The notes below the pieces were generated by a model. It worked only from the letters and a program-made list of their open reading frames with translations, searched no databases and had not been told where the DNA came from. DNA of 64,000 nt, from the NCBI GenBank assembly GCA_964187785.1, contig OZ076409.1, positions 29,080,001 to 29,144,000 on the forward strand, written 5' to 3'. The position numbers and the translations under genes are program-made. Each line of letters opens with the position of its first letter. Within the stretch, counting starts at the first letter, position 1. The DNA comes from Amphiscolops sp. MND2022. Taxonomy: Eukaryota. Of the stretch, positions 1-32,906 are shown piece by piece.

Positions 1-1
1 T

Positions 2-3000
2 TTTGATCCCTCGGGACGCACTATCATGTCTGCCCGACTACTGTTGGCGGTCGAGAGAGAAACCCGCCCAGAACTCACCATAGACGCTCTGATAGAAGAG
101 ATGACCGCAAACGAGAATTGCCGGCAACTGACTCTGCCCCAACCGGAAGAGTGGCAAGTGAAAGGTGTCACTTCGACGTATCATGCCTATTCTCCGATTC
201 CAGTCAAAGTCTGCATAGATGGTGTTGACATGCGTTTTGGCGCCACTATTCTTACTGATGCGTTTCCTCCTGGAATCTGCTTGGGACCGCAAGAGCTGCG
301 CTGCTATAACATTGATGCTCAAGAACCAACTGGTGAAGCGAGAATCGATGAGCGTGCGTCGCTCGTGGTTTCATTCGTGGTTCCCGATGCTGCTCCCGTG
401 CCATTACGTGGTCTAATAGACACTGGATCAGGAGTATCCATCCTCACCTTCTCAGCCTACAATCGAGTCGCCGTGCGCACTGGCACACTCTTACGACCTT
501 ATGGTATTGACTTATATGCCGCGAATGGGAAGACGATCAAAACTCTTGGTCTAGCGGAGAAAGTCAAATTCCAATTGGGAGGCTATGAATTGGAAACTAA
601 CTTCGTGGTAGTTGATGACGCTATGGGAGTGGAAGACTTCCTCCTGGGCAGAAACTTCCTAAGAGCTTATCAGGTCTTGGTAGACCTAACCGCGATGAAA
701 GTCATTGTCCGAGCTCCCTCTGAACCGGTGTGGTACCATGCCCACGCGCATGTAAGTAACCAATCGCTCAATTCGTCGGTAGCGATTGCACAGGACGTAG
801 TGTTGCAACCTTGTGAACGCGCGATACTACGCGCTAGATTGCTTGTAGACAACTTAGAACCTTTCATGTTTCGAACCGTGCTAATCAATTTTCAAACACC
901 TAACCGAATGTTAAAAAACGCCATCTTTTTAGAGGACACCGTGGCGACTGTGGGGAAAACTGGTTTCCTTTACGTCAGTTTAGGAAATCTCACCAGCAAC
1001 GTACAGCGGATCAAAAAGTGCACCCTTTTGGGAACCGCGGTACCCGTGACGACGGTTCATAAAGCCATCCCCCAAATTGTCCCCGGACAATCAAATGAAA
1101 CTCTGCAGTCAAATGCAAATTATGTTTGTAAAGTTTACGAACAGATGAACCTTGATTCTTCTTCTGAATATAGTTCTTCATCTGAATTTGAGATTTTGTC
1201 CTCTACCGAACCGTCAGAACTAGGCTTGTCCGAGCGTGAAATAAAAAAACGAACCGATCCGGCGCTAATGGCTCCGATACCGGGCCCGGAAGCACAACTC
1301 GACGAAGAGCGCGGTTTGTGGGGCTCGACCGCCAGCGACACGCTTAGTAAACTTTTGAACGAATTTGATAATTTGTTTATGAAATTCAAAGCCGACATTG
1401 GCAAATGTAAAATCGCTAAGCACCCGGTGGAAGTAGAGCCAGGGGCTATACCTCACCGTGAAGGTGCAAGACGAATGTCGCCTGACAAGGCAGAACGTGC
1501 TAACCAAGAAGTCCGTGACTTGCTAGCTTTGGGAATGATACAACCTTCCCTATCCCCTTGGGCGAGTGGAATTGTTATGGTCAAAAAGAAGAGTGGTGAA
1601 TTGCGATTCTGTTGTGACTTTCGACCACTTAATGAAGTGACCATCAAAGACGCTTATCCCTTGCCACGTATCGATGAGAGTCTATCCCGATTGGGCAAAG
1701 CCAAAATCTATACCAGTATTGACTTGGCATGGGCATTCTGGCAAATTCCTGTCCGAAAAGCCGATCGTCAAAAGACTGCCTTCGCTTGTGAACTTGGGTT
1801 ATTTGAGTGGCGGCGTAAGCCTTTTGGTATGTGTAACGCATCAGCAACATTTCAACGGGCAATAGCGCGAGCGCTACAAAGAATAGTGAACCGCGAAGGA
1901 AGTATGGTTATGGCCTATATCGATGACATTGTGATTGCTACCGAGACCATCGAGGATCACATGGATAGACTAGGCGAAGTATTCCAATGCCTGCGTGAGG
2001 CCGGCTTCAAAATGAGAGTCTCCAAGTGTGACTTTATGAAATCGGAGATCAAATATTTGGGCCGAGTTGTATCCGCAGATGGTATCAAGCCAGATCCAAA
2101 AGCTGTCGCCAAGCTGAAAGATTGGGATATCCCGCGAACCAAAACTGAATTGCAAAGTTTCTTGGGTTTTGCCAACTACTATCGGGATTTTATCCCATAG
2201 CATGCAAAGCTAGTTGCCCCTTTACATGCGATGACGGGCGCAGGCTCTCCATTTTTATGGGGGGAGGAGCAGCAGCGAGCCTTTAGCAGCATCAAAGTGG
2301 CACTAATGGAAGCCACTGCTCTGGCGCAACCCGACACTGAAGGCGAATTTGTTCTTGACACCGATGCTAGTGGTGTAGCTATATCAGGTATTCTTCACCA
2401 ATGGCAATGACCACCTGAGAGTCGCAAATTGCGACCGATTGTATTCGGAAGCAAAAAGTTAACCTCTACGCAAGCAAAGTATGGAGCCCCAAAACTGGAA
2501 ATGTACGCTGCATACTATTTCATCTTGAAAAACCACAGCCATCTCTGTCCACGGAAATTCACACTGAGGGTCGACAATCAGACCCTATCCTGGCTAAAGA
2601 CATATTCGATGGATCAGGCGATTATTGGTCGATGGATTATGGCTCTTGAAAAATATCACTTCGGTATTGAGCACCGACCCAGAACGCAACATCGAAATGC
2701 TGATGGTCTTAGCAAACGAACAAATGACTACAAAAAACACGAAAAGCAATTAAAGGGTTTACCCGCAATTGCAGACAAATGGAATTTCCTATCACAAGAG
2801 GAATACAACAAACTCCCGCTAGCCCCATGGTTTGATGTCCACGGACGTGTGATACCAAATCACCCAGAATTGCCTGCACACTTGCAGAGGTTGGCTAGCC
2901 AAAGTTCACCCGAAACCACAGTTGCCGCTCCCACGCGAAGGAGCGGACAAAGCAAACGAAGTGCGATCATGCGCGACGAAGCCATGAGAGCACCCCTACC

Positions 3001-4255
3001 TACATTGCCAAAACCAGAATTGGCACTGCCTGCCGAACTTTATCCAGAAAATCCTGAGGATTGGTTGGAACTGACCGAGGAATATCAACGAGACTATTTG
3101 CTCCCCACGCATGCTGCTAACGTACCATCAAGAACCACTTATCCACTGACGGAAAAGCAAGCAACTAGCACTGCACCAGAGCACGTAAAACAAGCCGCGT
3201 TTGTGGTAAACAGCATATCGATGGAATTGCATGAACATGCTAACACAGTCCATGGGTTGAAAGATCTACTACTGGCACAAAACCGTGACGTCCACGTCTT
3301 GGCTATCAAGAAATTGGTGATGCAAGAGTCAATAGATCATGACATCTTTCCGGAAAATGTACGTGCCTTTGCCAAAAACTACCACAAACAGAAGAAGAAC
3401 CTTCTGCTGGTAAACGCCAACGGGGTTTTGTGTGTAAAGTACTCCAAAAGTCAAAGAGCTTTGCATGAACGCCCCTGCATGATAGTGATGCCCCAATTGT
3501 ATCAGCATGAGATATTGTTCAAGGCCCACGACGCGATGGGACATCAGGGCATCGCGAAAGTCTTGGCCAGAATTCAAGAGCGCCACACTTGGCCAGGCAT
3601 CCGCCGCACCATTGGACAATACGTCAGCCAATGTATCACTTGTCAACAAGTACGTGACAAGCCTGGTGATGTACGCTTTCACTTGAAAAATATCCAAAGC
3701 GGCTATTTTAACGAGCTAGTCCAATATGACCACATGAAAATTTGTCCCTCTGACGATGGTAACACAGGGATCTTGGTTATTATTGATCATTTCTCTAAGC
3801 TCGCAGAAGCTGTGCCGTGCAACCATGATGAGTATGATGCAGCGACCACTTCAAAATTGTTGTTGCAGAAATGGTTTGCCCGCCATGGAACGCCAACGAG
3901 AATGCAGTCAGACAATGCTCCCAACTTCACCGCGGCAGTATCTGCTGAGTTTATGAAAGCCGCCCAAGTGACCAAAGTAACCTCAACTGCTGGCCACCCC
4001 AAGACTCAAGGGTTGGTAGAGCGACAAAACCGAACGTTACTCACCCTTTTGCGTGTATTCTGCTCTAGACGAATGCGTGATTGGGACCAGTATTTAGATG
4101 AAGTCATGGGTGCATACAACTCCACACGTCATGCCACTACTGGGTTCTCCCCGTATATGCTGACCAGAGGCATGGAAAAAGCTATACCCCTGACTTTCTT
4201 GTATCCCGAATTTGCAACTCAGTCATTCGAGCCGCCTACATTATCAACAATTTGA
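2..4255 (+). pseudogene. pol: Gypsy pol: protease, reverse transcriptase, RNase H, integrase (interrupted)
   Basis: LIDTGSG protease; RFCCDFR, YPLPRID and YIDD RT motifs; LDTDAS RNase H; H..MGHQG..CxxC zinc finger; DDE integrase core. Stops at 2198 (TAG for W) and 2408 (TGA for G). About 0.5 kb of the integrase C-terminus (GPY/F region) is deleted near 4232 relative to B. Confidence 0.95.
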
Positions 4256-6373
4256 CTATTCTTCGACTGAGTCTGACGACGAACGTTCTGATGTACTCCT
4301 GTCGAGTGTTCAGGCTAATCCCGATGAGAGTGCTATCTTGTCATCACATGTGGATGAACCTGCGCCTATTCCCGAAATACCAATATCACCACTGCCTGCT
4401 ATGGAGGCTCTATTCTCAGAGAATGAAGCAGTGCCCGACGTCTTGGATATCGCCCCAAATCCTACTATCCACGCACCCACCAAAAGTGCCGGCACCTCTC
4501 TGACCGGTACATCCGCCCCATTATTGACAAATCCATCTCTTACGGATATGTTGAGTAACTTTCCCATTTGGCCCCTAATCGATGACAATGTTCTCAACCC
4601 CACCTTAGACGACAACGGCGCTGAAGCACCAATGACCAATGACGAAAAGGGATTTATTCCCCCACGACAGTTCCCACCAACAACAACGCAGCTACTACCA
4701 CGAAACTCTCCAATGCTCCTAGAGGGCATAGACCGCGGGGACGTCCGCCAGGCAGAACAAGGCCGCGAGCCTCGCTGCCACGTGGCCACCAACAGAGAGG
4801 TGCTATTAGAGGCGCTCGCAAAAGAGGCCGTCCCAGAGGAAGACCTCCTTGTACAACACACGCCAGACCTAACACCTCTACCCGTGTTCGTCGCACTCCA
4901 TCTGTGGACACTGACTCTTCTGCCCCTAGCGCAGCGGTTACCTCAGATCAAGCAGCACCGCCAGAATCAACCAACGCTCGCTATGGCCTGCGACGCAATC
5001 GTATTCCCAGATATCGTTGCGGAACATGTGGCCTACGAGACTGCGAATGTAACTACATGGTCCACGCGGGCTTCCCAATTAAACCCCAGGGAGTCCTGCT
5101 AGCACGTGAACAGGAGAAATCGCTTCCAAGCGGCACGGTTGACCGTTTGGTTATTCGAGCCGAGAAGACTTATACTGGGCTACAACGCAGCGACACTCCA
5201 TATCCTGTGGACTATATCCTATCCAAAATGAAAGATTCTACGATAGCAAAGGCCCCGTGCACAAGGTTCAAGGAGTGGACCTATGATCTTATTGGTTTGG
5301 AATTCACATTACCTATCACTGTTCCCCCCTTGCCTACAAATATTGCTTTTGGTCCTTTCAACTATGAACGAGAGCCTATCCAAATGGTACGCTGTATTCC
5401 TGCTGACCTTTTGTATGACAAGTACAACGTCACCGCAAAACCAGGAGACGTTTATCAGCCTGCAACCAACTGGTGGCTACTAATTACGGCCAAACAAGTG
5501 TCCAACCTGGTTTTTCCCAATAACTTGAACACCTGACTGGAGAGTTTGCGGACAATGGCCTCTCCTGATAGAATCACTTGTTTCCACACCATAGACCTGT
5601 ATCGTGGTAAAATTAAGTTTGAATGGTGGCTGGAACTTATCATAGCAGTCTTATCGAACTTTTCACGAATCCGATTCCTGGACGAATGGACGCACTCATT
5701 TCCTAGTCCTGTATCACTCCAATCAGCCCTACACGCACTGGATACATGGTCCAGGGCTAACATTGATAATCAATCGTTGCCGCGATCTGTGTGGCAAGAC
5801 TTGGGCGCCATTAAAGGCCTCCTTCCGAACACATGTGACGATGCTCTCTCCAATGACCCCGGACGAGAGTTAGTATACCATGGAGCCGTGAGACCTCAAT
5901 TGGTTGACTATGTGCAGTATGCCAATACGGACTTCCTGCAAACTCCCCATCATATTGTCTTATGTTGTCCCGCAAACCTTGAGACTAATTCTGCCGCTCT
6001 TCGTTACGTCATTCGTGAGCATGGTGCAGATGCAATCTTTCAACTTCGACCGGAGGTTGGCAATATTGTGACGCTACCCACATCTTTGATAGACGGCCAT
6101 CCTCAGACTATCCACCTTTTAATCACACGAGCTACACCTCGCTGCCCTATGCTCGCTGATATTCTCTTTGGATGTCTTGATCATTTGAAAACGTTACTCG
6201 AGCGCTTAGAGGCGATAGAAGTACACTTTGCCATCATTGATCCTGAGCGCCCAATACGTAATCTTTTCGACTTTTATACCTGTTTGATGGACGTATTTGC
6301 TGACACGCCCCTGACCGTCATTCTTCACGATCGCGTTTACGTATCTATTGCAAGCGTCGCTAGCTTTCCGTAG
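4232..6373 (+). pseudogene. Pol C-terminal extension: low-complexity linker, AT-hook-like RGRP motifs, CxxCxxxxCxC, two macrodomain-like repeats
   Basis: ORFs 4212-5102, 4904-5536 and 5546-6373 align with the uninterrupted C-terminal part of ORF 20790-23444 in B; one frameshift and a TGA at 5534. Confidence 0.8.
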
Positions 6374-6589: not shown

Positions 6590-9500
6590 ATGAACCAAGG
6601 TGACGATGAAAGCAACTACGTCCCTCCAAGGTCTTCAGATGACTCTCCTGCCTTGGGGCACCGCGTTTACGACACTTCGCGTGTCCAGCGTACCCCACAA
6701 ATTGCTTTCATTCGAGACAGACTCGACCAAGATCTGTCGCCAGCTACAGTAGCCGGGGTGGCGGCGATCATAGCCCAGATGGAGTCACAAGTGCAAGCCC
6801 CTATGCTGACGATATCTATCACTTCAGGCTTTCCTGGGTTCCAGCGATCTATGACGTTCCAAGATGGAGTGTGGTACGGCCATGATCTCACACATCACTT
6901 TACGGATGATCGTGCAGCGATCTCATACAGTCCTGCGAATGGCGGAGTCCATCAGACCAGATCTCTACAGATCCCTTCTTGCCCGCCTCCACCTCCACCG
7001 CCACCTCCTGTATCAATGCCACAAACAGTAGTGCGTGCAAGCACTTCTGCTCCTGCAGTGCCTAACTTGTCCAATCAACCAATGGCAGAACAAGCAGTTA
7101 TCTCAGCACTGCAAGCAGTAGCTATCAACCCTAATTACGCTGATTTCATGCGATCCATGGAGCAGTGTTGGCCTGAACTACGCCAAATTGCTCTGCCCAC
7201 TGTCACTATTCGCAACGAAAGCGCCACTTTGAACCAAACAAGTCAAGATGCTATCACTATTCCTCACGTCAATCCTCAGTCTGAACAGCCAGGGCACTCC
7301 CGCACCGTGACTGTAGAGCGCAGTCGTTCGCCTTCCCGCTCTTCTCAAAAGGGGGGAGGAGAGAGCCGCCCTGCCTCCAGAAAACGCAATGACCGTTCTC
7401 CACCAGGAATGAGTGCTCAACAACCACTAACTGCCCGTGACAGCCCCTCGAGCAAGCCACCACCCGACAAAAAGATCTCCAACGAGAAGGCCACAACCTC
7501 CAAGACGCCAAACCAAACAAAATCAAAAGTGTCGGAAGCATCCGTGCTTCCCTCACCCCAGCCACAACCAAACGCAACAGGCGAACAACAAGGACTGCCG
7601 CAGCCACCATCCACGCAGTCTACAACACGCGAGTCGCTGGCTCAACGAGCGATTCCTAAGCCTTCTACATCAAGACAGCCACAAACGGAGCAAACTGTGG
7701 GTTATCAAGGCACCCCTGAACCTCAGCGAACTGTCAAGGACATAATGGGTGATTACCCAGGATTGAAGGTAACCAACAGTGGTCCAACTGGAACCCCACT
7801 CCGCAAACAGGCAATTCAACACCCAACTAAGAGGACCTTTACAAAGCAACCGACGTACCTGAGTCCAATGCAAAACACGAAGGGCACGCTGATCACCAAG
7901 GACTCCCGACGTATCTGGGAATCGGCAGTTCTTGTATCACCCGAATGGCTGTTTGAAAAGAACATGTGTCCTCCGAATGACGAAGAGCATGCGAAATTGA
8001 AGAAGGCGAATGTATCTGTATTCATGAATCGTCCAATTCGCCCCGACCACACCCCTACTAATGAGCCGCCATGGCTAGGGAAGGCAATGAATATTCTGCC
8101 AAACGTAGAAGACAACTACTTGGACGCCCTCAACATTGACCTTCGTGGGCAATTCGCTGACCGATACTTCCTCAACGCTGGAGAGACCTTCGAGATCAAC
8201 CCGCGGTACGCCCGTGACCTCGAAGCCCAGCTACCAATGCCAAAAGAAAGGTTGCAGCGTGCGCGCTTCGCCTTACTTGTAGACTCGACCTTCCTCAAAA
8301 ATATCCCTATTGACAATGTGCTGTCAGACGTGATGGTTTTCACTCTACCGCTGTCACGTATCCCCGAGATGGCTGAAGTGTTGGTCACCATGTTTGACCC
8401 CGAGATGACGGGGACCTTCAAAGAGCCACCCCCACGCAGAGTGATCATCAGTAACATTCTCGATCACATGGCCTGTGAAGGACTAATGGCCCAGATCGCG
8501 AACGTTGAAATCATAAATCCAACTCCAGCACAGCGAGCAACAGTACGCAACGCAGCACTGAATGTGGCCCGAGCCATGGAAAAAGCCCAAAATATCCTAA
8601 AGAATAAACTCAACCTGCCAGTCTTGTTTGTAACACCCCCAGGTTTCTGCCAGTGGCATCCCGCCTTGCAGAGATTTATCTATATGGTAACAGAAATTTG
8701 CAAATGTAGAGAAATAGACTTTGCGATCTGCGCGCCCAATATGCGGATCAGCTCCGACGACTTGCGTCCCTCCTGGCTTTCCTACATGGGGTACGTTGCC
8801 TCAGTGTCTAAAGTGCTACAGTCAGTGGAGAAGACAGGGAACGCGCAGCTGACAATCGATGATGCCATCTATTTTGATCACGGTACTCGTATGGGCTTGT
8901 TAGTATTCAACAACAACGGAGAAACGCGAGTCCCAGAACCTAGCACGGCTGAATGTGAGGCAATCCGCCTGAATAACTGGATGGAGCGCGCGCGCTCCTC
9001 CGGTGGAAAGACTTGCATTAAAACTGATCTTGCGGAAGTCACCGCCATAATGAGCAAAATCCCCAGCGACCGAGAAGTGGAACGAGCCATCCCGCGAGTT
9101 CATTTTGCCCAGGACCTCACTATTGACCAACTATCAGTGGGAATGAGGTATATCGCTGCAAAATTGACGAGCGAGACTCAGGCTGAAATCCAAGCCTTCA
9201 GCAGCACCTACGACGCTTGGTACCAGCGGCTGCAAACTACCACCGTAGCAGACATTGCAAAAGAACTTGGGATGTCAACCGACCATTTTGCCATCTGTTT
9301 GGGATTGGGTTGGAGTCCCGATGTTATTCGAGTTGAGTTCGGCTTGGACGAACACTGGTTGATCGAAATCAGCAAGATTATCGGCACCATGCAAGTAAAC
9401 GAACTCTTTGCACTGATACTCACCTTCGGGCAGAAACGCTTCGTAGCTGGCCCAATGATGATATTGACCGACCTGGTTACTGAGTGTAATTTGGAATGGC

Positions 9501-10960
9501 TATTTTCGTATTTAGTGATTGCGCGAGGCAATATCTCAGGCCTCACCGCCTTAGCCAAGCTGCTACAACGAAAAGACGCTCAGGATTATCCCGCTCACCT
9601 GGAGCGCATGACAACTTCGTTATATCACTGGATATACTGCAGTCTGGTCTTTGCCTCGGGACTTTTCGTGGGCGTAGATAAGCACCAACCAATATATGAC
9701 GGACGTCAGCTGGTGACCGAGGTAGCTGGATTTCTGACACCTAACCAGCTGGCAGATTTCACTTTGGCTGAAGTCGAAGACCTTGTACCGGTGTTAGCAC
9801 CCGTGCTAACTCCGATATTTGGCCCAACCGGAATACTTCGCTATCCCACCAAGCCTCTGCGACTCGCCTGGGAGACACCAACAGTATCCATCCTGACTTT
9901 TCTGAAGAATGTAAAACCGTACAACTATCAGCAGATGCTTGAACGCGGGCTGTTCCTGCTAATACCCCGCATGTATACCACCATAAAGAACGAAACGCAG
10001 CAGGACGAAAACCTGGCCGGCATTCTCAAAGCCCGGACAAAGAAGGCGTGCCCTTTACCTCGCGAATACGGCCCGGTGAATTGGTACAATTCGCCCCTAC
10101 ATCACCATGGAATCCCACAGCGATTCAATTGGAGTTTCGCACACCTCAGGAGGTACGTGACCGAATGCGTACAAGCCATGGGCGGTCACACAAACCAGGG
10201 GTAAAATTTTCAGATGATCAAGCTTCCAGCCAGGTACTGGCGAGGACCCATCGGCTATGCCCGGGCTAAGCCAATCAGCATGGTTGAGAAAGGCTTTAAT
10301 GAGCAGTACGCCTATCGCGATCACTACAAACTAGGCGTGTGGATGTCAAGGACCCTGGAGGAACGCCAAGGGCGCCTAAAAGGCTTGATCATCCCTCCAC
10401 AGACAATGCCTGTTTGAAATCCAGAGGCGAGGGTCACTATGGGAAGCGACATGCCAGCGGAGACCTGCTACCATGTCATGGAACTGCTGAGTGATCCCCT
10501 CGGACCCGAATGGGAAGCCTCCAGGCAAATTATAGAACATGAAAACAGGGACAACTGGTCCAGAGCCTGCGGGCTCTGGGGCCGACCTGATCTACGCCCG
10601 AAACTCAGTGCCAAGCAGAAACGACCCATTGCCACCCGCAATAGACCGCTAGATCTACCACACCTGTTTAATGCCAGTAGATTGGATGTGCAGATCCCAA
10701 CCTCCACGTCGACCACAAGTTCTGCCAATGTTAGCGGCTCAGCCAATGCAGCGCAAGAACATTCGCCAGAAGTCTCAACTCCCGTAGCTGCAGAAAATGG
10801 CCCTAGTGGCTCAAACACGACTCCCAGGACCCATGAAACTGCCAGCGCCGAACCAAGGCCAGTCCTGCGAGAAGGAAATGTGCGAAGAGGATCCCTGTCC
10901 GAACCACAACCGAAAGCCGACGTCTCCCCCAGAGCGCGTCACTTCTCCGCCACCCAGTAA
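6590..10960 (+). CDS. Third ORF (env position) of element A, ~1,460 codons, with SGNH-hydrolase-like domain; frameshift near 10200 and stop at 10415
   Basis: 1204-aa ORF plus two downstream fragments, all homologous to B 16238-20494 (shared EPPPRRV, DHMACEGL, FAICAPN, LVFASGLFVGVD, KACPLPREYGPVNWY). Confidence 0.85.
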
Positions 10961-11753: not shown

Positions 11754-12487
11754 TGTAGCGATTACCTATCGAGTACACGATTTCGAAAATTTCGATGAAA
11801 ATTTCGTTCAAGGGACTATATCCCCTCTACTGAAAAGTCATATTCCGCTGGACGGCAGCGTGTCTTTATTCAAGTACCTGCCCACAGAATTGAAGAAAAT
11901 TTGAGCAAAAGACTCCGGGCAGACCCCAACCGAACGAGAAGACTGCAGAAAAACACGGCCGCTGTCAGGAAAAGACTCAAATTTCTGTCAAAACGGACTG
12001 AACTTTGTTCTAGCCAGTGCTTTCTTCAGCGAAGCGTTACAAGACGCTGTGATTACCGAAAATGAGTCAATTGGCTTGACCAAGCATCCGTGCTTGTGTC
12101 CCCGGCTAATTGCTGCCTCAAAAGTGCTAATTATGTAGTTATTTTCGTATTTTCTTGTTGTAACAGCTCGTGAGCTACTTATTTCGATTTCCTGTGTAAC
12201 TTCGAAAAAACTTGATTTTTCCTTTCCACCACTTGCATTTTTTAAAGGCTATCTAAGCGTTGGTTCCGAAGAAAAAGCGTAATGCGCGCTACTGTTAGCA
12301 ATTACAGACTGGATCAGGCCGGCGAGCACTTCTTAAGAAGCGGAATCCTCCTCTGACGGGACATTTCTTACCCGAAGGAGGCAAAATGGACTCATGGCCA
12401 TGGGCGCCTGTCCCGGGCAAATACCCATGTCATGTGTTCCTCCTGCTCTTATGGTTACGGCGACAATGGTGAGAGCTTGTCGTTACA
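11754..12487 (+). repeat. 3' LTR of element A (734 bp)
   Basis: TGTAGCG...CGTTACA termini, follows the PPT. Confidence 0.9.
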
Positions 12488-13149
12488 TCTACTGAAAAGT
12501 CATATTCCGCTGGACGGCAGCGTGTCTTTATTCAAGTACCTGCCCACAGAATTGAAGGGAATTTGAGCAAAAGACTCCGGGCAGACCCCAACCGAACGAG
12601 AAGACTGCAGAAAAACACGGCCGCTGTCAGAAAAAGACTCAAATTTCTGTCAAAACGGACTGAACTTTGTTCTAGCCAGTGCTTTCTTCAGCGAAGCGTT
12701 ACAAGACGCTGTGATTACCGAAAATGAGTCAATTGGCTTGACCAAGCATCCGTGCTTGTGTCCCCGGCTAATTGCTGCCTCAAAAGTGCTAATTATGTAG
12801 TAATTTTTGTATTTTCTTGTTGTAACAGCTCGTGAGCTACTTATTTCGATTTCCTGTGTAACTTCGAAAAAACTTGATTTTTCCTTTCCACCACTTGCAT
12901 TTTTTAAAGGCTATCTAAGCGTTGGTTCCGAAGAAAAAGCGTAATGCGCGCTACTGTTAGCAATTACAGACTGGATCAGGCCGGCGAGCACTTCTTAAGA
13001 AGCGGAATCCTCCTCTGACGGGACATTTCTTACCCGAAGGAGGCAAAATGGACTCATGGCCATGGGCGCCTGTCCCGGTCAAATACCCATGCCATGTGTT
13101 CCTCCTGCTCTTATGGTTACGGCGACAATGGTGAGAGCTTGTCGTTACA
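12488..13149 (+). repeat. Second, 5'-truncated copy of the A LTR (662 bp) in direct tandem
   Basis: Near-identical to 11826-12487 with a handful of substitutions; ends CGTTACA. Confidence 0.95.
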
Positions 13150-14752: not shown

Positions 14753-15466
14753 TGTAACGATAAGCGCTGGCGCTTGAACCGCAACGTAGAATGGAGGAAC
14801 TAGAACAGCGAATGTAATCCGGGACTTAGATCTCCGCGGCCCTAGCTCATTTTCCCTCCGAAGGAGCCAGTCCCAAGGTGGGGGAACCGTCTTGTTGGAA
14901 ACTCTCTGGCCTGGTCCTAGTCTGTAACTGCTAAAAGTAACGGGCATCTTGCACGTCTCAAGACCACTGCTCAATTAGCCTTTAAAAAGGGGGCTGAAAA
15001 CAGGAGGATGTTGAGCCATAGTATTGGAGAATCTGATAAAATCGACATCAAAAAGGGGTAACCATAGATGTAAATGGGCAGCTCTCGAGCATATCAATCT
15101 ACTACAACAAGAAAAGCACAATAAGCATAACAATATCAGAAGTTTGAGTTATTTAGCAGGAGCGAATTGACCATGGCTTCCCAGCGCTAGCGCTCGTCAC
15201 CGCACAGGACGCCGCAGGATCTTCAGGCGAGCATCTGGAACACCGGTTTCTGTTACCTATGTAGTGCAAACGCCAAAGATGGGCACATCACCGTGTTCTA
15301 GGGACTGTTTTCTACGTCTTCTCTTTTCGTCGTCTCTCGCGGGGGCGATTTCTGATTTCTGATCTGCTTTTTTGACAGGTCTTTCGTCTGGAGCATGTTT
15401 GAGTGCCACGTCAGACTTGAACGAATTTTTGCTTCGAAAATTTTGACATGGGCAGTTGCCGTTACA
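14753..15466 (-). repeat. 3' LTR of B (714 bp)
   Basis: TGTAACG...CGTTACA; no difference from 32907-33620 seen by eye. Confidence 0.97.
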
Positions 15467-16237: not shown

Positions 16238-19200
16238 TTATTGGGCTGAGCTGCGTCGAGCTCGATTCTTTATGGCATCATCGGGAGTTCCTGGATTGCT
16301 GGCATCTTCCGACGCAATTGACGCTCTACGTTGAGCAGGAACCACAGTAACTACTGTTTCCGAGTCTGACAGGTCCTCTGGGAGCGTTAAATCGGCGATT
16401 GGCTGCACCAGGATAGTGCTGGGGGTCAGTTCAGCGTCGTGTTCTCCGGTCTGGGGTTGCGATGACTGAGGACTGGCCTGTGTCGATGGTGGACTCACAG
16501 GCTCTGCCTGCAGAATATGAGTGGGCAAATCCAGAGTCACGGGCCGGTCGATGGGCTGACTTAGTGACATGGCCATTGTGGGTGCCAGCATGGTAGGCGC
16601 GAACGCCTGTTGTCTCTCGAGTTCAGCTCTACTCTCCACGGCCAAGGATATCCGTTTGGAGACCCAGCCAGGCTGACTCCAGAGCTCGCAAGCTCGCTTC
16701 CATTTGGGGAAGCTGGCAATTTCCAGCTCCAAACAATGTCCTTCCCACTCTGCGCGGGCTTCGGAGCCTAGCACAGAATTAATCTCATCGTGTTGGACGA
16801 TGGACATATCCCCTGACATTGTCATCTTGGCCTGCGGTCGCCAGGCAGCTTTTCTTGGGAACGGAATCACGCGGCTCTGCAGGTTCCTCTGGCGAGTCTG
16901 AGCTGCTCCTTCAATCCAGTTTGGGATTTGAGCCAATTCCATATACTGGATTTGTCGATTGAAGGCTTCAGGGGCGCGACCAACGGGTTTTGCTCTAGGC
17001 CATCCCAGTGGCTCCTTCCAATAGTGATTTGGGAAGGTGATGCATTTGAAGGCGTACAGGGGATCTACTGGTGGACCAGCACTAGTGCTGGCACGGATCA
17101 CCTTGCGAATGAACTCCTGCGACCAAGGGAATCTAAAGGGGACTCCATTCAGGCTGAGGGGTGCGGAGTACCAGTTGACTGGGCCGTATTCTCGTGGCAA
17201 AGGGCACGCTTTTCGTGTGCGGGCACGCAACAGACCCATCAAATTCTCTTCTAGTTGTTTCTCCGACTTCAAGGTGGTGTACCCGTGCGGCATCTCGCCA
17301 CTCAATACAGCCTGCACGATTCGCTGATAGGTCAGTGGGGGGCGTCCTTGGAGATAGGTGCAGAAGGAGACCATATGCACCTGTACTGCTCTCGCCAGTG
17401 GTTTGGTGGGATACCGGCACACACCGACCGCACCGAAGATTGGAGCCAGGACGGAAGCCATAACGGCCACGAAGTCTTCCACTTCGGCCAGAGTCAAATC
17501 GGCGATTTGCTGAGGCATGGGGAATCCCGCCGTTTCCGCAGGGAGTTGACGCTCGGAATGGTGGAGGGGTTGCGATTGATCCACGCCTACGAACAAGCCA
17601 GAGGCGAACACTAGGGTGGAGTACAACCAATGTTGGAGGGACGCACGCATGCGTTCCAGCTGGGTGACATAATCTTGCTGGTCCTTGGAATTTAGGAGGT
17701 GGCCCCATCGAGTTAGGCTGCGTAGTTGTCCCTGCGCGAGGATCAGGTAACTGTAAAAGGTGACTAGATCACTGGACACTACCAACTCGACTAGCATAGC
17801 AAGGGGACCTGCCACAAACTTCGTCGGGCCCATGGCTAGCGCGAGCGCTAACATCTCTCCTACAGTAGCTTCGCCGATGGTTTCCAACAATTTGTCGGTC
17901 TGCACATTGGTGAGCAAGTACTCAGAGGCTATTACGTCGATGTTCCAGCCTAGTCCGAGACTGGTACAAAAGGCTTCCAAGGGACAGTTAAGCTCTTGAG
18001 CTACCTCGGCCAGGGTCCTGTCCACGAATCTGGACTGATACCACTCGGCATACGTTATTCCGGCGGCATCTACTTCAGCCTTCAAGTTGGTCGCCTCTAT
18101 AGCCACGACGTACCTCATGCCCACGGGCAACTTGACGGGTTCTATTCCCGCGGCAAACCGAATTTGGGGAATGGTCCTTTCGACCGTGCGTGTGGCAGGC
18201 CAGGTTTCAATTTCCTTCACGAGCTCTGCCAGCTCTGCTCGTACGGGAATTTCTTTGTCCTTCCGCACCAACCAGTTGTATCGTCGGACGGCCTCTCGTT
18301 CACTCATGTTGGATGCCCGCATGACGCGATTCCCGTCCAAGTCGAAGGCCATTCGCCCCATACACATTCCATGATCGAACAGTATGGCGTCGTCGATAGT
18401 CAGTTGTGCATTTCCTGATCGTTCCACAGCGATCAGCACTCTCGACACGGCAGCAAAGAAGGCGGGGTATGACAATCAACCCGCAGATTTGGCGCGCAAA
18501 TAGCAAACTCGATTCGGCGCGCTTTGCATACCTCAGACAGGATGTACACAAATTGCTGCAAGCTTCGTTGCCAATACATGAATCCCGGCGGGGATGCGAA
18601 GAGCGCGAGCGCTCCCAGACGACCCCGAAGGATCCCTGCTGCACGCTCCATTGCGTCTGCAACCACGTTTACTAAGGACGCCACACTCCCAGGTCTACGG
18701 GTATCTGCCATGAGGGCATCCAGGTTGCGTAGCAGTCCTTCACAAGCCATGTGGTCGATCAGATTGGTGAAGACTACACGTCGCGGGGGCGGCTCTCTTA
18801 GGGACCCTCTCAGGTTAGGGTCGTACATGACCGCGACCATCTCCGCGACCTCAGCGAAGCGGGAGAGTGGCATTGTTAATACCAGCACATCGGGCAGAAG
18901 GTTGTCGATGGGGAGATCACTCTTGAGTGTCGAATCTACTGCCACACAATAGCGCGCACGCTGCAGAGCTGCTTTCAAGAGGGGCTTCATTGACTTGATA
19001 TTGCGAGCGTAGCGGGCGTTTGCTTCCCAGGTTTCTCCTTCGTGCAACATGTACCTAGCGGGAAATTGCTCGGTGAGGTCATGCTGCAGGCGAGCCATAT
19101 AGTTGTTGGGTGTCGCGGGCAGTTGCTCTCGAGCACGCTGTTCCCAGGCTTGCTCACTCAAGTCCGCATCACGGGCACGTAGCGACCGAGTTATCTGAGC

Positions 19201-20494
19201 CGCAATGGTGATTCTGCTCACTTCTCTCTGCTCGGCGTTAGACGGCGGTGCTCTCCTTCTAACCGCACATGTGTTCGGGTACAAACACTCTGCCGCCATC
19301 CAGATGCGTTTGCTATCGCCAGTCACCACGGTGCCGGATACATCATCGGACGGGGGAAGAAAGGCGGGAGGACTGGTCTCATCTATTGTCTCGGGCACCT
19401 CCAGGGACATGTTGGCAGAGCCTGTGCCCGAGGGCACAGGACTCGTTTCAGGATTCGCATCCACACTGCCGTAGCGGTTAATGGCCTCTTCCAGGGACAT
19501 CTGAGGCGCGCCTACGCCTAGGTGGCCGACGCGATGTGGAGGCCTCACGACCACCACACTTTTCATCTGCGACTGGTGGGGTACATCTGCTCGCTTGTCC
19601 GGAGGGGGACGACTGGTCGGACTGTCGGTCACGGAATCATGGCGTGTAGCGACGATGTTTTCCTCAGTAAGTCGCTTCCGGCCAGTTTCCTCACGGGGAT
19701 AGGTCATGGCGCTGGTGCTTGGTCCAGCCGTAGTTTCTGCTTCCATAGACACAGCTTCGGCTAGGGTGGTGGGTGGGGTGACGCAGCCCGAGGGCTGAGC
19801 TGCGGCTTGCAAGTAATGTGCCAATCCGGGAATCCTTTGCTCAACTGCACGAACGAAGTCAGAGGAGTTGGGGTAGTTGGCGACAGCCTGCAGGGCCACA
19901 ATCACCGCTTGCTCGCTGGCACTCCGTCCGATCAGATTTAGATTAGGCACTGCTGGCGGTTGGGACCCCGAGGGCTCCCGACTTGAGGCTGGTTGATTGG
20001 TAATGTTCTGCGTCGTCGTTGCCCGGGTTCCATATGGTGCCCCATAAGCAATCGAGCTAGAATGCGGTGTCGTCTGCACTGGATTTGGTGCCGCAATGGA
20101 AGGCAGCGATGGGACGTTAACGGGCATCATACGCAGTGATGTTTCTTGTTCGAATCTGGTGCCCTGGCTGGGGCCATGCACTGCGATTGATCTTTCGTCC
20201 AAGAACTGGTGAGTCAGGGTCGTGCCCATCCCAGGCATTGTTGGTGCACGTCAAGGTGCGACGATAGCTTGCCACCTCCGTGGTGATTGACAAAGATGCA
20301 TTCGGCAGCATTTGCATCGATTCAAGCTGAGTCAGTAGGGCGGCCACCCCAGCTACGGCTACTGGCGAAAGACCGTCCCGCAGCTTTGCTTCGACATATT
20401 GGGCCTGATTGACCCTCTGCGCTCGCGCAGATTCCTGGGGCCTTGCACTATTAGACCCTGTTGCAGGCGCTGAATTGTTTGGGCAATGGGCCAT
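16238..20494 (-). CDS. Third ORF of B, ~1,420 codons, SGNH-like domain; frameshifts near 20240 and 18478
   Basis: ORFs 20117-20494, 18433-20238 and 16238-18475 are consecutive pieces homologous to A ORF3. Confidence 0.85.
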
Positions 20495-20789: not shown

Positions 20790-23444
20790 CTACTTCAGCC
20801 CTATAGTTAATATTGATACATATACGCGGCTATGCAAAACCACGTGAATACCAGTACCCTCGAACATGTTCGTTAGAGTATGGTACAGATTGACCAACGA
20901 GAAAGCCGGTCTCTCGGGATCCAGAATGGGTAGGTGGACCCGTGTGGATCCTTTATCTATCAGGCGCTGTATCAAGTACGTCATGCAACGCAAGTAGTCA
21001 TCTGTCAGCAGCGGTGCGCGCTGGTTAGCACGGACTATCAACAGGTGAATACTTTGGTTAGGGTTGGGGTTCACATCAGGCGGGATAGTGAGAATCTCGC
21101 CCACCTTAGGTCGTAAGGCAAATACATCTTCCATGCCGCACTCCCGCAGCACATATCGCAGGGCGGCAGAGTTGGTCTTTAGGTCAGCAGGGCATGCTAA
21201 CACTATGTCGCCCTCGGCCTGCAAGAAATCGGATTCATCGTAAGAGACGTGTTCGGCTGAATTCGGATACAGGGCTCCCGGGTAAACAATCTCTCGTCCG
21301 GGGTCATTATCTGGGGGCAGACACACGCGATGCGTACGCCCTTGGACTGCAGCCAGGTCTTGCCACACTGAGCGGGGCATCGCTCGATTGTCGCTGCCGG
21401 CCTTTACCCACGCATCTAAAGTTCCCAGGGCGGCTTTGGGGAACAAGGGGATCTCGAAGGTGTGAGTCCACTCATCTAATAGTCGAATTCTGGGATAGGT
21501 GGCGAAACATGTGATTATTAGTTCCAGCCACCACGCGAACTTCATCTTACCTCGGTACCAGTCTATGATATGGAAGCAAAGTATTAAGTCCACTGTGGTG
21601 AGGGTCCTCAGACTCTCTAGACAGGATAACAGATTCAACGGTTCCACCAGCGCCTCCACTCGTGGAGCTGTTACCAGCAGCCACCAGTGAGGAGCCGGGC
21701 TGTATACCCCTCCTGGTTCCACCTGGACTCCATACTTGTCGCATAACAAGTCGGCAGTGATGCATCGGACCATCTGCACAGGTTCTCTTTCAAAATTGAA
21801 TGGTCCAAACGCAATATTACTAGGCACGGGGGGCAACACCGTGGGCAGGGTAAACTCCAGGCCCTTTCCATCGCTAGTCCACTCCTTAAACCTAGGACAA
21901 GGGGCCTTCGCTACCCCAGGCAGTGACAACTTCTCCAGGATAGTGTCCACAGGGTGGTCTCCGGACCGCTCTACAGCTGAGTAGGTTTTCTCGGCCCGCA
22001 CCGTGAGGCGGTACACCAAGTTTTCTCTCTCTTCCGGAGGAACTCCCCGGGCTCCAATGGGAACCCTCCGGTTCTCATTCACAGCTAATAGGCAGACACA
22101 ATCTCGCAGCCCGCAGGTTCCACACTTGTAGCGCGGCTGTCGTTTACTCCTTAGTTGATACCTAAGAGCAGTTGCAGATGCTTCTGTTAGCGTCTCTGCA
22201 GTTCTGGGAGCTTCCGTTTCGGCCTGGATCGCAGTTTCAGTTTCGGCATTTCTCGGTGTTTCTTTCTTCCTCGTCCTTGCCTTCGCTCGGATCAGCCGTT
22301 TCTTCTGTGCCTTGGGTGGTCTCCCCCTCCCCCTTTTAAAAGAAGGAGCGGTCCCCGCTCCTGGCGAAGTTTCGGGAGCATGAGGCGGATCGGGTTGAAC
22401 GTTGCTGTCACTGCTGGCAGATTTGAGGGGAATCGGAGGGGCGGTCGGCCATATGGGATAGTTACTAAGAAAGTTGGTTAGCGAGGGATTCGTCAACAAG
22501 GAAGCTGAGGTTCCTGGTAGCGATGTCTCTTCTTCGGAGGATATCTGTGGAGACGGTGAGCGCACTCGCTCATGGTCAGAGAACAGTTGGGGTAGTACAC
22601 GGGCAGGGGATATCGACTGATCCAACGTAGTCGGAGGAGCCGCAGGCTCCACCATATCCTCGTCAACGGGATTAGGAGGTATTGGCAACATGGCATCGGA
22701 TAGTTCGTCGTCTGTACCCGAGGTGGAATAGTCAAATTGCTGATAATGCGGGCGGGAGCCACATGCGCGAAGTTTCGTGCGTAGTCGAGTGTCCATCCAG
22801 TGACGTCGACGTGGGGGCAAAGATGCATCGGACGCCTCTGAAAGTAGTTGTTCGGGTTTATACGACGATAAAGACTTGTCGTCATCAACTACATCGACGG
22901 AACGTTCAGGTTCGGGGTCCATAAGGACCACCACCTCACCACTGTCCGAGTGTGCGGTAGCAAGTTCAAGTGGGCCACTGTGGTGCGGTTTAAGACGCTC
23001 AAAATGAACCTTTTGACCTGTGTCTAGTACATAGACACGACCGTCCTGAAAGACTTGTACAACTTTGTGCGGGCCTCGCCAAGCACGCATCAATTTCGGG
23101 GAACCCTTTTGCGGTACGTAGCGGCAAAAAACCCAGACGAGCTCGCCTACTTGGTAAGCTCGCGCTTGTATAGCACGGTCGTACTTCAACTTTTGACGCA
23201 ATTGGGCTTGGTGCGTGTTACGCCGTACCAGGTCATGTATTTCCTGTTGGCGAGCCAATACATGATCGACATATGCCTCATGCGACTCGAATGATTTGGC
23301 TGCAAACTCGGGATATAAGAACGTGAGAGGGATGGCCTTCTCTACGCCACGGGTCAGCATGTAGGGTGAGAAGCCAGTGGTGGCGTGCCTCGTAGAGTTG
23401 TAGGCACCCATGACTTCATCAAGACATTGGTCCCAATCGCGCAT
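20790..23444 (-). CDS. Integrase C-terminus (GPY/F-like WRGPHKV) plus extension with AT-hook (KRGRGRPPK), CGTCGLRDCVC and tandem macrodomains
   Basis: Continues the integrase (MRDWDQ..YNSTRHATTGFSP) after a frameshift near 23470, where A reads through in frame. Confidence 0.88.
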   Translation of the reverse strand: MRDWDQCLDEVMGAYNSTRHATTGFSPYMLTRGVEKAIPLTFLYPEFAAKSFESHEAYVDHVLARQQEIHDLVRRNTHQAQLRQKLKYDRAIQARAYQVGELVWVFCRYVPQKGSPKLMRAWRGPHKVVQVFQDGRVYVLDTGQKVHFERLKPHHSGPLELATAHSDSGEVVVLMDPEPERSVDVVDDDKSLSSYKPEQLLSEASDASLPPRRRHWMDTRLRTKLRACGSRPHYQQFDYSTSGTDDELSDAMLPIPPNPVDEDMVEPAAPPTTLDQSISPARVLPQLFSDHERVRSPSPQISSEEETSLPGTSASLLTNPSLTNFLSNYPIWPTAPPIPLKSASSDSNVQPDPPHAPETSPGAGTAPSFKRGRGRPPKAQKKRLIRAKARTRKKETPRNAETETAIQAETEAPRTAETLTEASATALRYQLRSKRQPRYKCGTCGLRDCVCLLAVNENRRVPIGARGVPPEERENLVYRLTVRAEKTYSAVERSGDHPVDTILEKLSLPGVAKAPCPRFKEWTSDGKGLEFTLPTVLPPVPSNIAFGPFNFEREPVQMVRCITADLLCDKYGVQVEPGGVYSPAPHWWLLVTAPRVEALVEPLNLLSCLESLRTLTTVDLILCFHIIDWYRGKMKFAWWLELIITCFATYPRIRLLDEWTHTFEIPLFPKAALGTLDAWVKAGSDNRAMPRSVWQDLAAVQGRTHRVCLPPDNDPGREIVYPGALYPNSAEHVSYDESDFLQAEGDIVLACPADLKTNSAALRYVLRECGMEDVFALRPKVGEILTIPPDVNPNPNQSIHLLIVRANQRAPLLTDDYLRCMTYLIQRLIDKGSTRVHLPILDPERPAFSLVNLYHTLTNMFEGTGIHVVLHSRVYVSILTIGLK

Positions 23445-26400
23445 ACGGCGGGAACAAAAAACTCGCAGTTAGCAGCGTCCGATTTTGGCGCTCGACCAAG
23501 CCTTGGGTTCTCGGATGGCTAGCCGTAGAGGTTACTTTGGTAACGTGGGCTGCTTTTAGGAATTCGTTGGACACCTCGGCAGTCAAATTAGGGGCATTGT
23601 CAGACTGCATCCTAGTGGGTGTGCCATGACGGGCGAACCACTTTTGTAACAGCAACCGAGAGGTAGTCACAGCGTCGTAGTCATGATGACTACAGGGCAC
23701 TGCTTCCGCGAACTTGGAGAAATGGTCAATTATGACCAAGATGCCAGTGTTATTACTGTCTGAGGGGCAGATCTTCAGATGATCATATTGGACCAATTCG
23801 TTGAAGTATCCGCTTTGGATGTTCTTTAGGTGGAATCGGACGTCACCAGGCTTATCTCGAACTTGTTGACAGGTGAGGCATTGGCCAACGTAACGGCCCA
23901 CGCTGCGCCGAATACCAGGCCATGTGTGACGTTCTTGAATCCTAGCCACCACTTTGGAGATACCTTGATGTCCCATGGCGTCATGCGCGCGGAATAAAAT
24001 CTCATGCTGGTACAGTTGTGGCATGACGATCATGCACGGACGTTCGTGCAGGGGACGTTGGTTGGGAGGGTATTGTACGCAAAGTACACCATTCTTGTTG
24101 ATAAACAGGAGGGTTTTCTTCTGGCGGTAGTAGTTGCGTGCGAATTCACGCACGTTCTCGGGAAACACGTCATGATCGATAGATTCGTTCAGCACCAACT
24201 TTTTGAGTGCTAGCACATGAACATCACGGTTTTGGGCTAGAATCAAATCTTTGATACCATGCACGGTGTGAGCATGTTCGTGAAGTTCAGTGTTGATGTC
24301 TTTAAGAGCCGTGATTGAGTCGCGCACACCCGAGGGAGTACCTTGCAACGCAACAGGATTCGCCCCAGCAATAGTATAGACGGTACGTGAGGGTACATTT
24401 ACGGCATGCGTTGGTAATAGATAATCTTCGCGTGCTTCATCAGTCACATCAATCCAGTCCTCAGGGTAGTCTGGATATGCATCCTCGTGCGGTTGCAGAG
24501 CAAGGGAAGGCGGAGGTGGCAAGGGGGCTGCGAATGCTTTTGCTTGTCTGTCCCTCCTGCTCGCTCGTTTGGTGCGGCGAAGCACGCGTAGCAATTGGTT
24601 GGGAGCCTTAGGCTCCAAGTTCTGCAGGTGCGCAGGTAACTCGGGATGGTTCGGGATGACTCGACCCTGAAGGTCGAACCATGGGGCAACAGGTAGTTTA
24701 TCAAATTCGTCAGCTGAAAGAAAGTTCCAGCGTTCGCCCGCAGCTGGCTGCTGTGCAAGCTGTTTTTCGCGGCATCGGTACTCGTTGGTTCGTTTGCTCA
24801 AGCCATCGGCGTTTCGATGTTGGGTCCTCGGGCGGTGTTCCACGCGAAAGTGATATTTCTCCAGGGTCATAATCCATCGGCCGATTAGCGCTTGATCCGT
24901 GGAGTAGGTTTTCAACCAGGACAAAGCTTGGTTGTCCACCCGCAGGGTGAATTTCCGGGGACATAGATAGCTGTGGTTCTTCACTATGAAATAGTAGGCG
25001 GCGAACATTTCAAGTTTGGGGGCTCCGTATTTGGCTTGTGTGGTGGTGAGCTTCTTGCTACCGTAAACTATCGGTCTCAGGCGTCGTTCACCCGGAGGAC
25101 CTTGCCACTGGTGCAGAATACCCGAAATGGCGACAGCACTAGCGTCAGTGTCCAACACAAACTCTCCTTCGGAATCAGGCTGCGCGAGCGCAGTTGCCTC
25201 GATTAGGGCTTTTTTGATCTCATTGAATGCGGTTTGTTGCTCAGGACCCCAGGCGAAGGTGGCATTTAGTCCAGTGACGGCGTGCAGGGGTGCAACCAGC
25301 TTAGCGTGCCAAGGAATGAATTCGCGATAATAGTTGGCGAATCCAAGGAAACTCTGCATCTCCGTCTTGTTACGGGGAATTTCCCAATCGCGCAACTTGA
25401 CGACGGCTTTTGGGTCGGGCTTCACTCCTTCTGCGGACACCACTCGTCCCAAATACTTGATCTCCGATTTCATGAAATCGCATTTGGCCACGCGCATTTT
25501 GAAGCCGGCTTCACGGAGACATTCAAAGACTTCACGTAGGCGTACCATATGGTCTTCCACAGTCTCCGTGGCAATCACGATATCATCAATGTAGGCCATG
25601 ACCATGCTGCCCTCACGATTGACAATATTCCTTAGCGCACGCGCTATTGACCGCTGAAACGTGGCAGATGCATTGCACATACCAAATGGCATTCGCCGCC
25701 ACTCAAAAAGTCCTAGTTCACAAGCAAAAGCGGTTTTGTGGCGATCCGCTTTTCGCACGGGAATTTGCCAAAAGGCCCAAGCAAGGTCTATGCTGGTATA
25801 GATCTTGGCTTTGCCTAGCCGTGCCAGGCTTTCATCAATGCGGGGCAAGGGATAAGCATCCTTAATGGTTACCTCACTTAACGGGCGGAAGTCGCAGCAA
25901 AAGCGCAACTCCCCGTTTTTCTTTTTCACCATTACAATGCCGCTCGCCCAGGGGGACAGCGAGGGCTGTATCATTCCCAGAGCTAAGAGGTTCCGTACCT
26001 CCTGATTGGCACGTTCGGCCTTCTCAGGGGACATCCGGCGAGCACCTTCGCGATGCGGTACAGCCCCTGGTTCCACCTCCACGGTGTGCTTAGCGATAGT
26101 GCACCGACCGATGTCTGCTTTGTGTTTCATGAACAGCTCATCAAATTCATCGAGGAGGTTACGGAGAGACTCGCAGGCGCTAGCGCCCCACAAATCCTTG
26201 ACCGCCTTGAGCTGAGATTCCGGCCCAGGAATCGGAGCCATTAGCTCTGGGTCCGTTCGTTTGCGAATCTCGCGCTCCGATAGTCCTGCCTCGCTAGGGT
26301 CAGTAGAGGACAAAAACTCAAATTCGGAAGAAGAGGTTAACTCAGAAGCAGTGGATAGATTCACTTCACTATAAATTTTATGAACAAAATTTGCACGACT

Positions 26401-32873: not shown

Positions 32874-32891
32874 ATCCCTCTGTGGTCGCCA
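32874..32891 (-). promoter_or_regulatory. Primer binding site of B, tRNA-Arg-like
   Basis: TGGCGACCACAGAGGGAT, complementary to a tRNA 3' end ...ATCCCTCTGTGGTCG-CCA like metazoan tRNA-Arg(TCG); identical 18-mer in D. Confidence 0.8.
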
Positions 32892-32906
32892 AAAAATGAG
32901 GTTCTA

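Follow-up and report, generated by a model that had tools for sequence, protein, structure and literature searches.

A large env-slot gene with a predicted SGNH hydrolase-like domain marks an env-less Ty3/Gypsy lineage in Amphiscolops sp. MND2022

Vesta long terminal repeat (LTR) retrotransposons of bdelloid rotifers carry GDSL-type third open reading frames (ORF3s) with intact catalytic residues, and catalytically degenerate GDSL derivatives are known from Athena-L retroelements (Rodriguez, Kenefick, Arkhipova 2017, PMC5408684). Here we describe an ORF of about 1,450 codons found in two Ty3/Gypsy elements, A and B, within a 64,000-nucleotide stretch of the Amphiscolops sp. MND2022 assembly (GCA_964187785.1, contig OZ076409.1, positions 29,080,001 to 29,144,000 of the forward strand; hereafter the window). 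Like Vesta ORF3, it lies downstream of pol in the place of env (the env slot), is predicted to contain an SGNH (GDSL) fold and has no env layout. A membrane role has been proposed for Vesta ORF3, and one may be considered here by analogy. Unlike Vesta ORF3, which is ~1.3 kb long, has intact S, G, N and H residues and is neutral within its genome (PMC5408684), the present ORF is a multi-domain gene of ~4.3 kb that has no catalytic His and evolves under purifying selection between families. No Vesta ORF3 homology surfaced in our protein searches, which included no direct comparison with that protein. A Pfam scan of B gag-pol also revealed no dUTPase, a Vesta trait located between protease (PR) and reverse transcriptase (RT), and there is no intact GDSL triad either. 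An earlier note on this DNA, made from the sequence alone, knew of no SGNH domain in the third gene of an LTR element. Because Vesta ORF3 is published, the SGNH ORF in the env slot is already in print as a concept (PMC5408684).

There are several other systems to which the protein can be compared. The ORF1p SGNH esterases of CR1/L2/RTEX and Penelope-like elements, such as ZfL2-1, share the fold and are retroelement accessory proteins, but they belong to non-LTR elements, occupy the first ORF and are active enzymes with a full triad. In the available text of Schneider et al. (2013, PMC3905857), the ZfL2-1 esterase binds anionic liposomes even with active-site mutations, and the authors ascribe this to surface charge. 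The OSK domain of Oskar (PDB 5A4A) is likewise a non-catalytic SGNH domain (PMC10792757, from the portion consulted), although it belongs to a host germ-plasm protein in which Asp replaces Ser, and no sequence similarity to it was detected. The accessible part of a recent preprint describes sORF2 of MDG1/412-group elements as an env-independent accessory protein that acts at membranes and in cell-to-cell transfer (bioRxiv 10.1101/2025.03.14.642691). As presented there, sORF2 is a short transmembrane fusogen-like protein of unrelated size and fold, and it offers a functional precedent only. The large Burro and Ogre Gypsy elements are also long and carry extra domains or ORFs of unknown function, but their domain sets differ and Burro has in-frame env homology; the sections of PMC6431247 consulted mention no esterase or macrodomain. 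Macrodomain ORFs are reported for fish endogenous retroviruses in the excerpted text of PMC4977317.

Among titles and abstract openings outside subscription journals, Repbase Reports and Dfam, we found no paper on this ORF protein family, on a Gypsy clade with 3-bp target-site duplications or on a Gypsy Pol protein with a macrodomain tail. The new features are the size of the ORF, its degenerate site, ~600 unclassified conserved residues, the 3-bp duplications, a 15-16-nt gap before the primer site, the macrodomain-like Pol tail and a conserved leader.

A search of the 1.07-Gb genome with the central part of the ORF gives at least 129 scored matches at 93-100% identity for A and at least 150 at 95-100% for B; of the best 150 B matches, some 100, counted by eye, lie in frames of at least 1,420 codons. 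A and B are damaged members of high-copy families. Open copies elsewhere in the genome run, from stop to stop, for 1,479 codons (A) and 1,430 codons (B), and these natural copies are 35% identical (535/1509) in an alignment of nearly full length. We collected 12 elements from several families, and further families were found by searching the genome with outside homologues of the ORF. In each of the 12, gag-pol precedes an ORF of 1,400-1,491 codons, and 120-290 nt separate the two (420 nt in a single, damaged copy). The elements are 18.9-19.4 kb long, with LTRs of 707-738 bp whose pairs are 97-100% identical (the ten elements with both LTRs parsed), and the families are very abundant and young. 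The usual Ty3/Gypsy features are present, including the order PR-RT-RNase H (RH)-integrase (IN), a CCHC Gag, TG..CA LTRs, a transfer RNA (tRNA) primer site and a polypurine tract.

The ORFs fall into groups A, B/D and C/E, with 28-37% identity between groups. Between A/B and C/E, ORF identity is ~29% and RT identity 72-74%; the ORF diverges far faster than RT while it is under purifying selection. In an RT tree of 20 elements, a small sample of our choosing from this genome only, the 12 elements form one clade with support of 99/100, and a quick tree of the ORF has the same branching. The ratio of nonsynonymous to synonymous substitution rates (dN/dS) is 0.07-0.20 over the whole ORF in six of seven family pairs, the seventh being saturated, and 0.05-0.16 over the SGNH domain in six of the seven. 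The ORF is co-inherited with RT, purifying selection acts on it from end to end, and it is best explained as the clade-defining accessory gene of an env-less Gypsy lineage. A chance ORF or artefact is ruled out by the many open copies and the dN/dS values. A captured host gene lying between elements is also ruled out, as the ORF is always inside the LTR pairs (10 of 12 elements with both LTRs parsed).

The earlier note had proposed most of this picture, namely a real ORF common to A and B and under selection, LTRs with little likeness (only blocks of 91 nt, at 73%, and 34 nt are shared) and a distinct Gypsy lineage, and the intact copies for which it recommended searching are plentiful here and have relatives beyond this genome. 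Other parts need revision. Its "third gene" does occupy the env slot, but it is the second ORF, because gag and pol form one ORF of ~3,200-3,300 codons in open copies (3,193-3,310 in the four elements with a single frame). Its "two diverged elements" are diverged in this ORF but close by RT (88.5% identical). Finally, they are not "giant" by the 20-kb internal-region bar given in the part of PMC6431247 consulted.

There are 405 matches to the ORF at E<=0.001 in a library of 1.84 billion representatives, and two further searches returned 79 and 141. None of the matches listed (all 79, and the best 120 of the 141) has a Pfam domain or a name. Ten library clusters were examined and contain one named member, "hypothetical protein, partial"; its 816-bp contig belongs to a bacterial bin and is probably host contamination. 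Some matches, such as P0142 (100%), are this genome's own, but P0115 and P0099 reach at most 37% and 30% identity here, so other genomes must contain members of the ORF family too. No relative turned up when metagenomes were scanned with P0167.

An AlphaFold2 model of residues 455-870, built from 114 sequences, has a mean predicted local distance difference test score (pLDDT) of 78 and a predicted template modelling score of 0.75. (Residues are numbered along the stop-to-stop frame of A, with the start Met as residue 24.) Its strands fall at the five places that the earlier note had named. In a structural search (VIA) of 48,161 representative chains, the best match is the platelet-activating factor (PAF) acetylhydrolase 1bwp_A (Z 11.3, root-mean-square deviation (rmsd) 3.7, 184 residues aligned). 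There are 28 chains at Z>=8, the best being PAF-acetylhydrolase and GDSL lipases, and SGNH/GDSL proteins account for nearly all of the top 50, covering roughly residues 580-775. The OSK domain of Oskar is also matched (Z 8.0, rmsd 5.8, 162 aligned), at rank 32 and below many enzymes. The top-ranked family in Foldseek is SGNH as well, with a best E of 0.002. Thus, the model supports an SGNH hydrolase-like three-layer alpha/beta/alpha fold, with five parallel strands, for this domain.

Several results weigh against this assignment. Foldseek gives no match at E<=0.001 for the SGNH model, and none of the sequence methods used sees the link: Pfam has no family for any part of the ORF, a profile of the 114 ORF sequences finds nothing among PDB sequences at E<=10, and a profile-profile comparison with 12 SGNH domains of other elements in this genome is not significant (probability 0.8%). 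For the SGNH region, the ESM Atlas offers only leads under 0.9, VWA among them. In addition, the residue registers of the SGNH blocks were set by eye rather than from a structural alignment.

The motifs read by the earlier note are present in copy A at 8264 (RFALLVDST), 8336 (VFTLPLS), 8447 (ISNILDH), 8627 (FVTPPG) and 8756 (DDLRPS). Block I is D-S-T in all 12 open copies and aligns with GDS in the profile comparison, and its Ser is kept in 27 of 36 aligned fragments. Block II is T/N-L/M-P-L/C in 12/12, with Pro in place of the oxyanion Gly. Block III is N-x-[F/I/L]-D-H in 12/12; if its D pairs with the D of GxND, a register chosen by eye, the Asn position is hydrophobic. Block V is [L/W/F]-R-P in every copy, with no D-x-x-H and no His nearby, and in a by-eye register Arg stands where the catalytic His is expected. 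The oxyanion Gly and Asn seem to be lost. Because the DxxH motif, which supplies the His-Asp half of the catalytic triad, is absent and these residues appear to be missing, the domain is probably a pseudo-esterase. In contrast, the LINE (long interspersed nuclear element) ORF1 esterases and another Gypsy family of this genome keep GDS, G, GxND and DGxH. The earlier note fares well on this domain: the fold is borne out by modelling and structural search, though not by any sequence profile, and the retained Ser and the Arg at the His position are both seen, the latter in that same register.

The rest of the protein has little in common with a retroviral or errantiviral Env. There is no N-terminal hydrophobic stretch in any of the 12 copies (maximum 19-residue hydropathy 0.03-1.39 within the first 80 positions), cysteines are few and unconserved (6-21 per copy, none invariant), and neither the Env layout of signal peptide, conserved Cys ectodomain and C-terminal anchor nor a Pfam family was found. 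The absence of an env layout and of a signal peptide, as the earlier note had it, therefore holds. The absence of any membrane segment is less clean, since a hydrophobic segment at residues 1088-1106 is present in all 12 copies with a hydropathy of 1.73-2.28. A second AlphaFold2 model, of residues 845-1362, has a mean pLDDT of 62; a helical domain at ~855-1045 is confident and the remainder is poor. The fold check that the note had recommended for this C-terminal half came out negative. Foldseek finds no PDB match, the best hit of a wide VIA search has Z 4.0 and a second VIA search gives nothing, and a predicted viral library yields no match to viral glycoproteins (best E 0.046). Because the helical domain was searched only inside the larger model, it is not established as a new fold.

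The nearest sampled relative in the RT tree (90/94) is a Gypsy element in which an intact SGNH domain immediately follows integrase; an ORF further downstream has a signal-peptide-like start and looks env-like by eye, with no Pfam match. Its sister position is only suggestive because the element was picked for its SGNH domain. The LTR of this relative is ~1.5 kb, and the SGNH domain is in frame after integrase in one copy. Because this element has both an intact SGNH domain and an env-like ORF, such a domain is not in itself an env substitute. The idea of an "env-replacing" gene is thereby weakened. Other elements of this genome are also worth recording. The ORF1 of LINE elements carries an SGNH esterase (Pfam Lipase_GDSL_2, weak OSK). 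Several other Gypsy families have intact-looking TARG1-type macrodomains before RT, between RH and IN, or after IN. An antisense ORF follows pol in two of these macrodomain families and in one of the two matches JmjC weakly (E 0.001); a long env-like ORF is present in one family.

The clade has further unusual traits. Of 32 insertions, 23 have a target-site duplication of 3 bp, two have one of 4 bp and two one of 5 bp; in the other five, copy B of the window among them, it is absent or mismatched. The 3-bp form is seen in 10 of 14 B-family pairs, in 8 of 10 E-family insertions (two solo LTRs included) and in 5 of 8 further elements, besides which two could not be parsed and two others had already been counted. 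The usual Ty3/Gypsy range is 4-6 bp in the available text of PMC8969392, and the 3-bp duplication marks a variant without excluding the clade from Ty3/Gypsy. A spacer of 15-16 nt separates the LTR end from the primer site in every family parsed, whereas the site directly adjoins the LTR in two other Gypsy elements of this genome. From this spacer we infer that 15-16 nt are trimmed from the end of the complementary DNA (cDNA); the usual trimming is 2 nt. The short duplication and the long spacer together point to an integrase variant. In the A-C families the primer site is complementary to host tRNA-Arg(TCG), and the E families have a different sequence. This genome also has ~260 tRNA-Arg(TCG)-like genes in a tandem array, spaced ~173 bp apart, and the anticodon of some of them is TCA.

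The Pol tail contains two domains that were compared with Pfam-Macro-positive domains of other Gypsy elements here. The second matches with a profile-profile probability of 82% (E 1e-5, 128 columns) and the first with 13% (E 0.002), and the ESM Atlas places the tail in a Macro cluster (0.89). Pfam and PDB profile searches of the tail were blank. TARG1-type macrodomains have a catalytic Lys and a G-C-G-x-D motif. Both domains lack the G-C-G motif, G-C-G-L-D being replaced by D-P-E-R, and they look like degenerate macrodomains of a probably TARG1-like type. A conserved C-G-T-C-G...C-x-C motif precedes the pair (window 5357-6370, plus strand; 20793-21800, minus strand). There is also a non-coding leader of 2.2-3.1 kb. 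Leaders A and B are 74.5% identical over 829 nt, as conserved as RT DNA, but their mismatches are spread evenly by codon phase (363/363/348, vs 958/334/327 for RT). The conserved part has no Rfam family, apart from one chance-level row, and its consensus fold is weak (-5.6 kcal/mol over 501 columns).

For the env-slot protein a function can only be inferred from these features. It is quite likely a non-catalytic binding or scaffold protein. We tentatively favour, short of calling it probable, a role in the membrane targeting of element particles or RNA, because the gene occupies the env slot of a lineage without env, has a conserved hydrophobic helix and shares its predicted fold with the ZfL2-1 esterase, whose liposome binding does not need the active site. 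An env-like ORF is absent from the lineage while its nearest sampled relative has one. The protein would be made from a spliced subgenomic RNA, and pyrimidine tracts ending in AG before the ORF start, identified by eye, suggest a probable splice acceptor. It would be cytoplasmic. Perhaps the dead esterase pocket, with its Ser and the Arg at the His position, serves as a binding site rather than an enzyme. The hydrophobic helix and the pocket might then tie particles or RNA to cell membranes, for trafficking or for hand-over to other cells, without the protein being a fusogen.

There are several reasons for caution about this role. The net charge of the SGNH domain is close to zero (-1 to +4), whereas liposome binding by ZfL2-1 was credited to surface charge. 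The hydrophobic segment, which is modest and rich in proline, may be no more than a buried helix. The related element with an intact SGNH domain beside an env-like ORF suggests that the domain does not imply env replacement. Moreover, the main function may reside in the ~600 conserved residues to which no fold is assigned.

One alternative, which we consider unlikely, is an Oskar-like scaffold in which the dead SGNH domain and the region upstream of it bind element RNA, perhaps the conserved 2-3 kb leader, while the disordered linker drives granules for particle assembly or for carriage to germline or stem cells. OSK, as the consulted part of PMC10792757 has it, sets a precedent for a non-catalytic SGNH domain, and its structural match was noted above. 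The region before the domain is net basic in 7/8 families with four invariant Arg (14 in the whole protein), and the clade keeps a long non-coding leader. However, OSK ranks below many enzymes in the structural search, it has lost the Ser that is kept here, and neither the domain nor the whole protein is basic, the net charge of the latter being negative in 7/8 families.

Another possibility, which also strikes us as improbable, is that the protein serves counter-defence or host manipulation: as a pseudo-enzyme decoy or adaptor, paired with the degenerate Pol macrodomains, it would block silencing or innate defence. The fast divergence of the ORF relative to RT under purifying selection, the degenerate appearance of both acquired enzyme folds of the clade, and the abundance and youth of the families would be consistent with such a role. 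However, there is no domain like a known suppressor, the pairwise dN/dS values show no positive selection, and env-slot genes usually diverge fast too.

The prospects are poor for an active hydrolase or acyltransferase with a rewired site, in which Ser589 would be the nucleophile and the invariant Asp648-His649 would supply the base. The D-S-T and D-H residues are invariant in 12/12 open copies, this His is kept in 39/42 aligned fragments, and transposon esterases elsewhere stay active (PMC3905857, in the text available; PMC5408684). However, that His is missing from the most distant pair of outside homologues, where P0157/P0161 have Asp and P0126 has Tyr, and the oxyanion residues appear to be gone. 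The conservation of the Asp-Ser pair need not mean catalysis, because the pair is a structural Asx motif of the fold (PMC10792757, same portion). An unrecognised Env or fusogen, with the SGNH part as a receptor-binding or receptor-destroying module as in haemagglutinin-esterases, would suit the env slot, the probable splice acceptor and the single conserved hydrophobic helix, but is very improbable given the lack of a signal peptide, the few and variable cysteines and a C-terminal model without a viral glycoprotein match in the predicted viral library.

Membrane targeting, the role we favour, can also be placed in a wider combined picture, which we doubt would hold in full. This would be an undescribed Gypsy clade that has lost env, in which a 1,450-residue pseudo-esterase with a new helical fold moves particles through membranes or between cells, and in which an integrase with tandem dead macrodomains makes a 3-bp stagger and takes 15-16 nt off the U5 end.

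The features of the two elements are listed in Table 1. Element A is part of a tandem, and a second A copy upstream has its 5' LTR in common with it. Beyond the partial LTR duplicate of A (11754-14067 in all), an inverted LTR fragment lies at 13636-14067 beside a 200-N gap. The window also contains a different, broken Gypsy element at 43391-50374 (minus strand) and two copies of a 1.35-kb repeat (35873-37236 and 49651-51209), 13.8-14.0 kb apart. Between these copies are three ORFs of 290-420 codons (39257-40522 and 41996-43165, plus strand; 37148-38017, minus strand) with no Pfam family. The beginning of another gag, similar to those of A and B, occupies 61697-64000 (plus strand) and suggests a third element of the clade extending past the window end. 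A match to the C-family ORF is located ~9 kb past that end.

Table 1. Coordinates in the window of the features of elements A and B
Feature	Coordinates	Strand	Remarks
Broken pol of A (PR, RT, RH, IN and tail)	1..6373	+	Element start ~6 kb upstream of window
Pol tail of A, two degenerate TARG1-like macrodomains (apparent)	5357..6370	+	Second from ~5912; preceded by conserved Cys-x-x-Cys motif at 5012
Env-slot ORF of A	6590..10960	+	ATG at 6590, frame closing at 10958-10960; 1,456 codons from ATG in open copies; early stops here at 10202 and 10415
Small conserved N-terminal region (residues ~53-140)	6677..6940	+	14 invariant positions in 8 families; can also be made out in outside homologue P0157
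Ser/Pro/Gln/Thr low-complexity linker	6941..7882	+	Poorly conserved; probably disordered
SGNH-fold domain, predicted (residues ~575-775)	8243..8845	+	D-S-T, N-x-x-D-H, PPG and R-P invariant in 12/12 open copies; no D-x-x-H
All-helical domain, predicted (residues ~855-1045)	9083..9655	+	pLDDT mostly above 85; no structural match within the 518-residue model
Conserved proline-punctuated hydrophobic helix (residues 1088-1106)	9782..9838	+	Candidate membrane anchor or buried helix
3' LTR of A	11754..12488	+	Then partial tandem copy up to 13150
3' LTR of B	14753..15466	-	714 bp, identical to B 5' LTR
Env-slot ORF of B	16238..20494	-	ATG at 20494, end at 16238; two frameshifts, at ~20220 and ~18475
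Gag-pol of B (PNMA-like Gag, one CCHC knuckle, PR, RT, RH, IN)	20790..30366	-	One frame change near 23450; macrodomain-like tail ~21800-20793
Conserved non-coding block in 2.5-kb leader of B	30656..31472	-	74.5% identity to A; no triplet periodicity
Spacer and primer-binding site of B	32874..32906	-	15-nt spacer (32906-32892); site (32891-32874) complementary to host tRNA-Arg(TCG) 3' end
5' LTR of B	32907..33620	-	

These elements touch on two open questions, namely the route by which LTR elements without env get to germline or stem cells and the role that esterase domains play in retroelements. In this clade, numerous diverged natural copies carry a large, selected and apparently non-catalytic version of such a domain. 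Binding is thereby separated from catalysis, and the choice between lipid and RNA could be tested on isolated domains. Annotation tools that demand 4-6-bp duplications or an adjacent primer site would be expected to miss these abundant elements. The 3-bp duplication and the long primer spacer make the integrase variant to which they point worth structural study.

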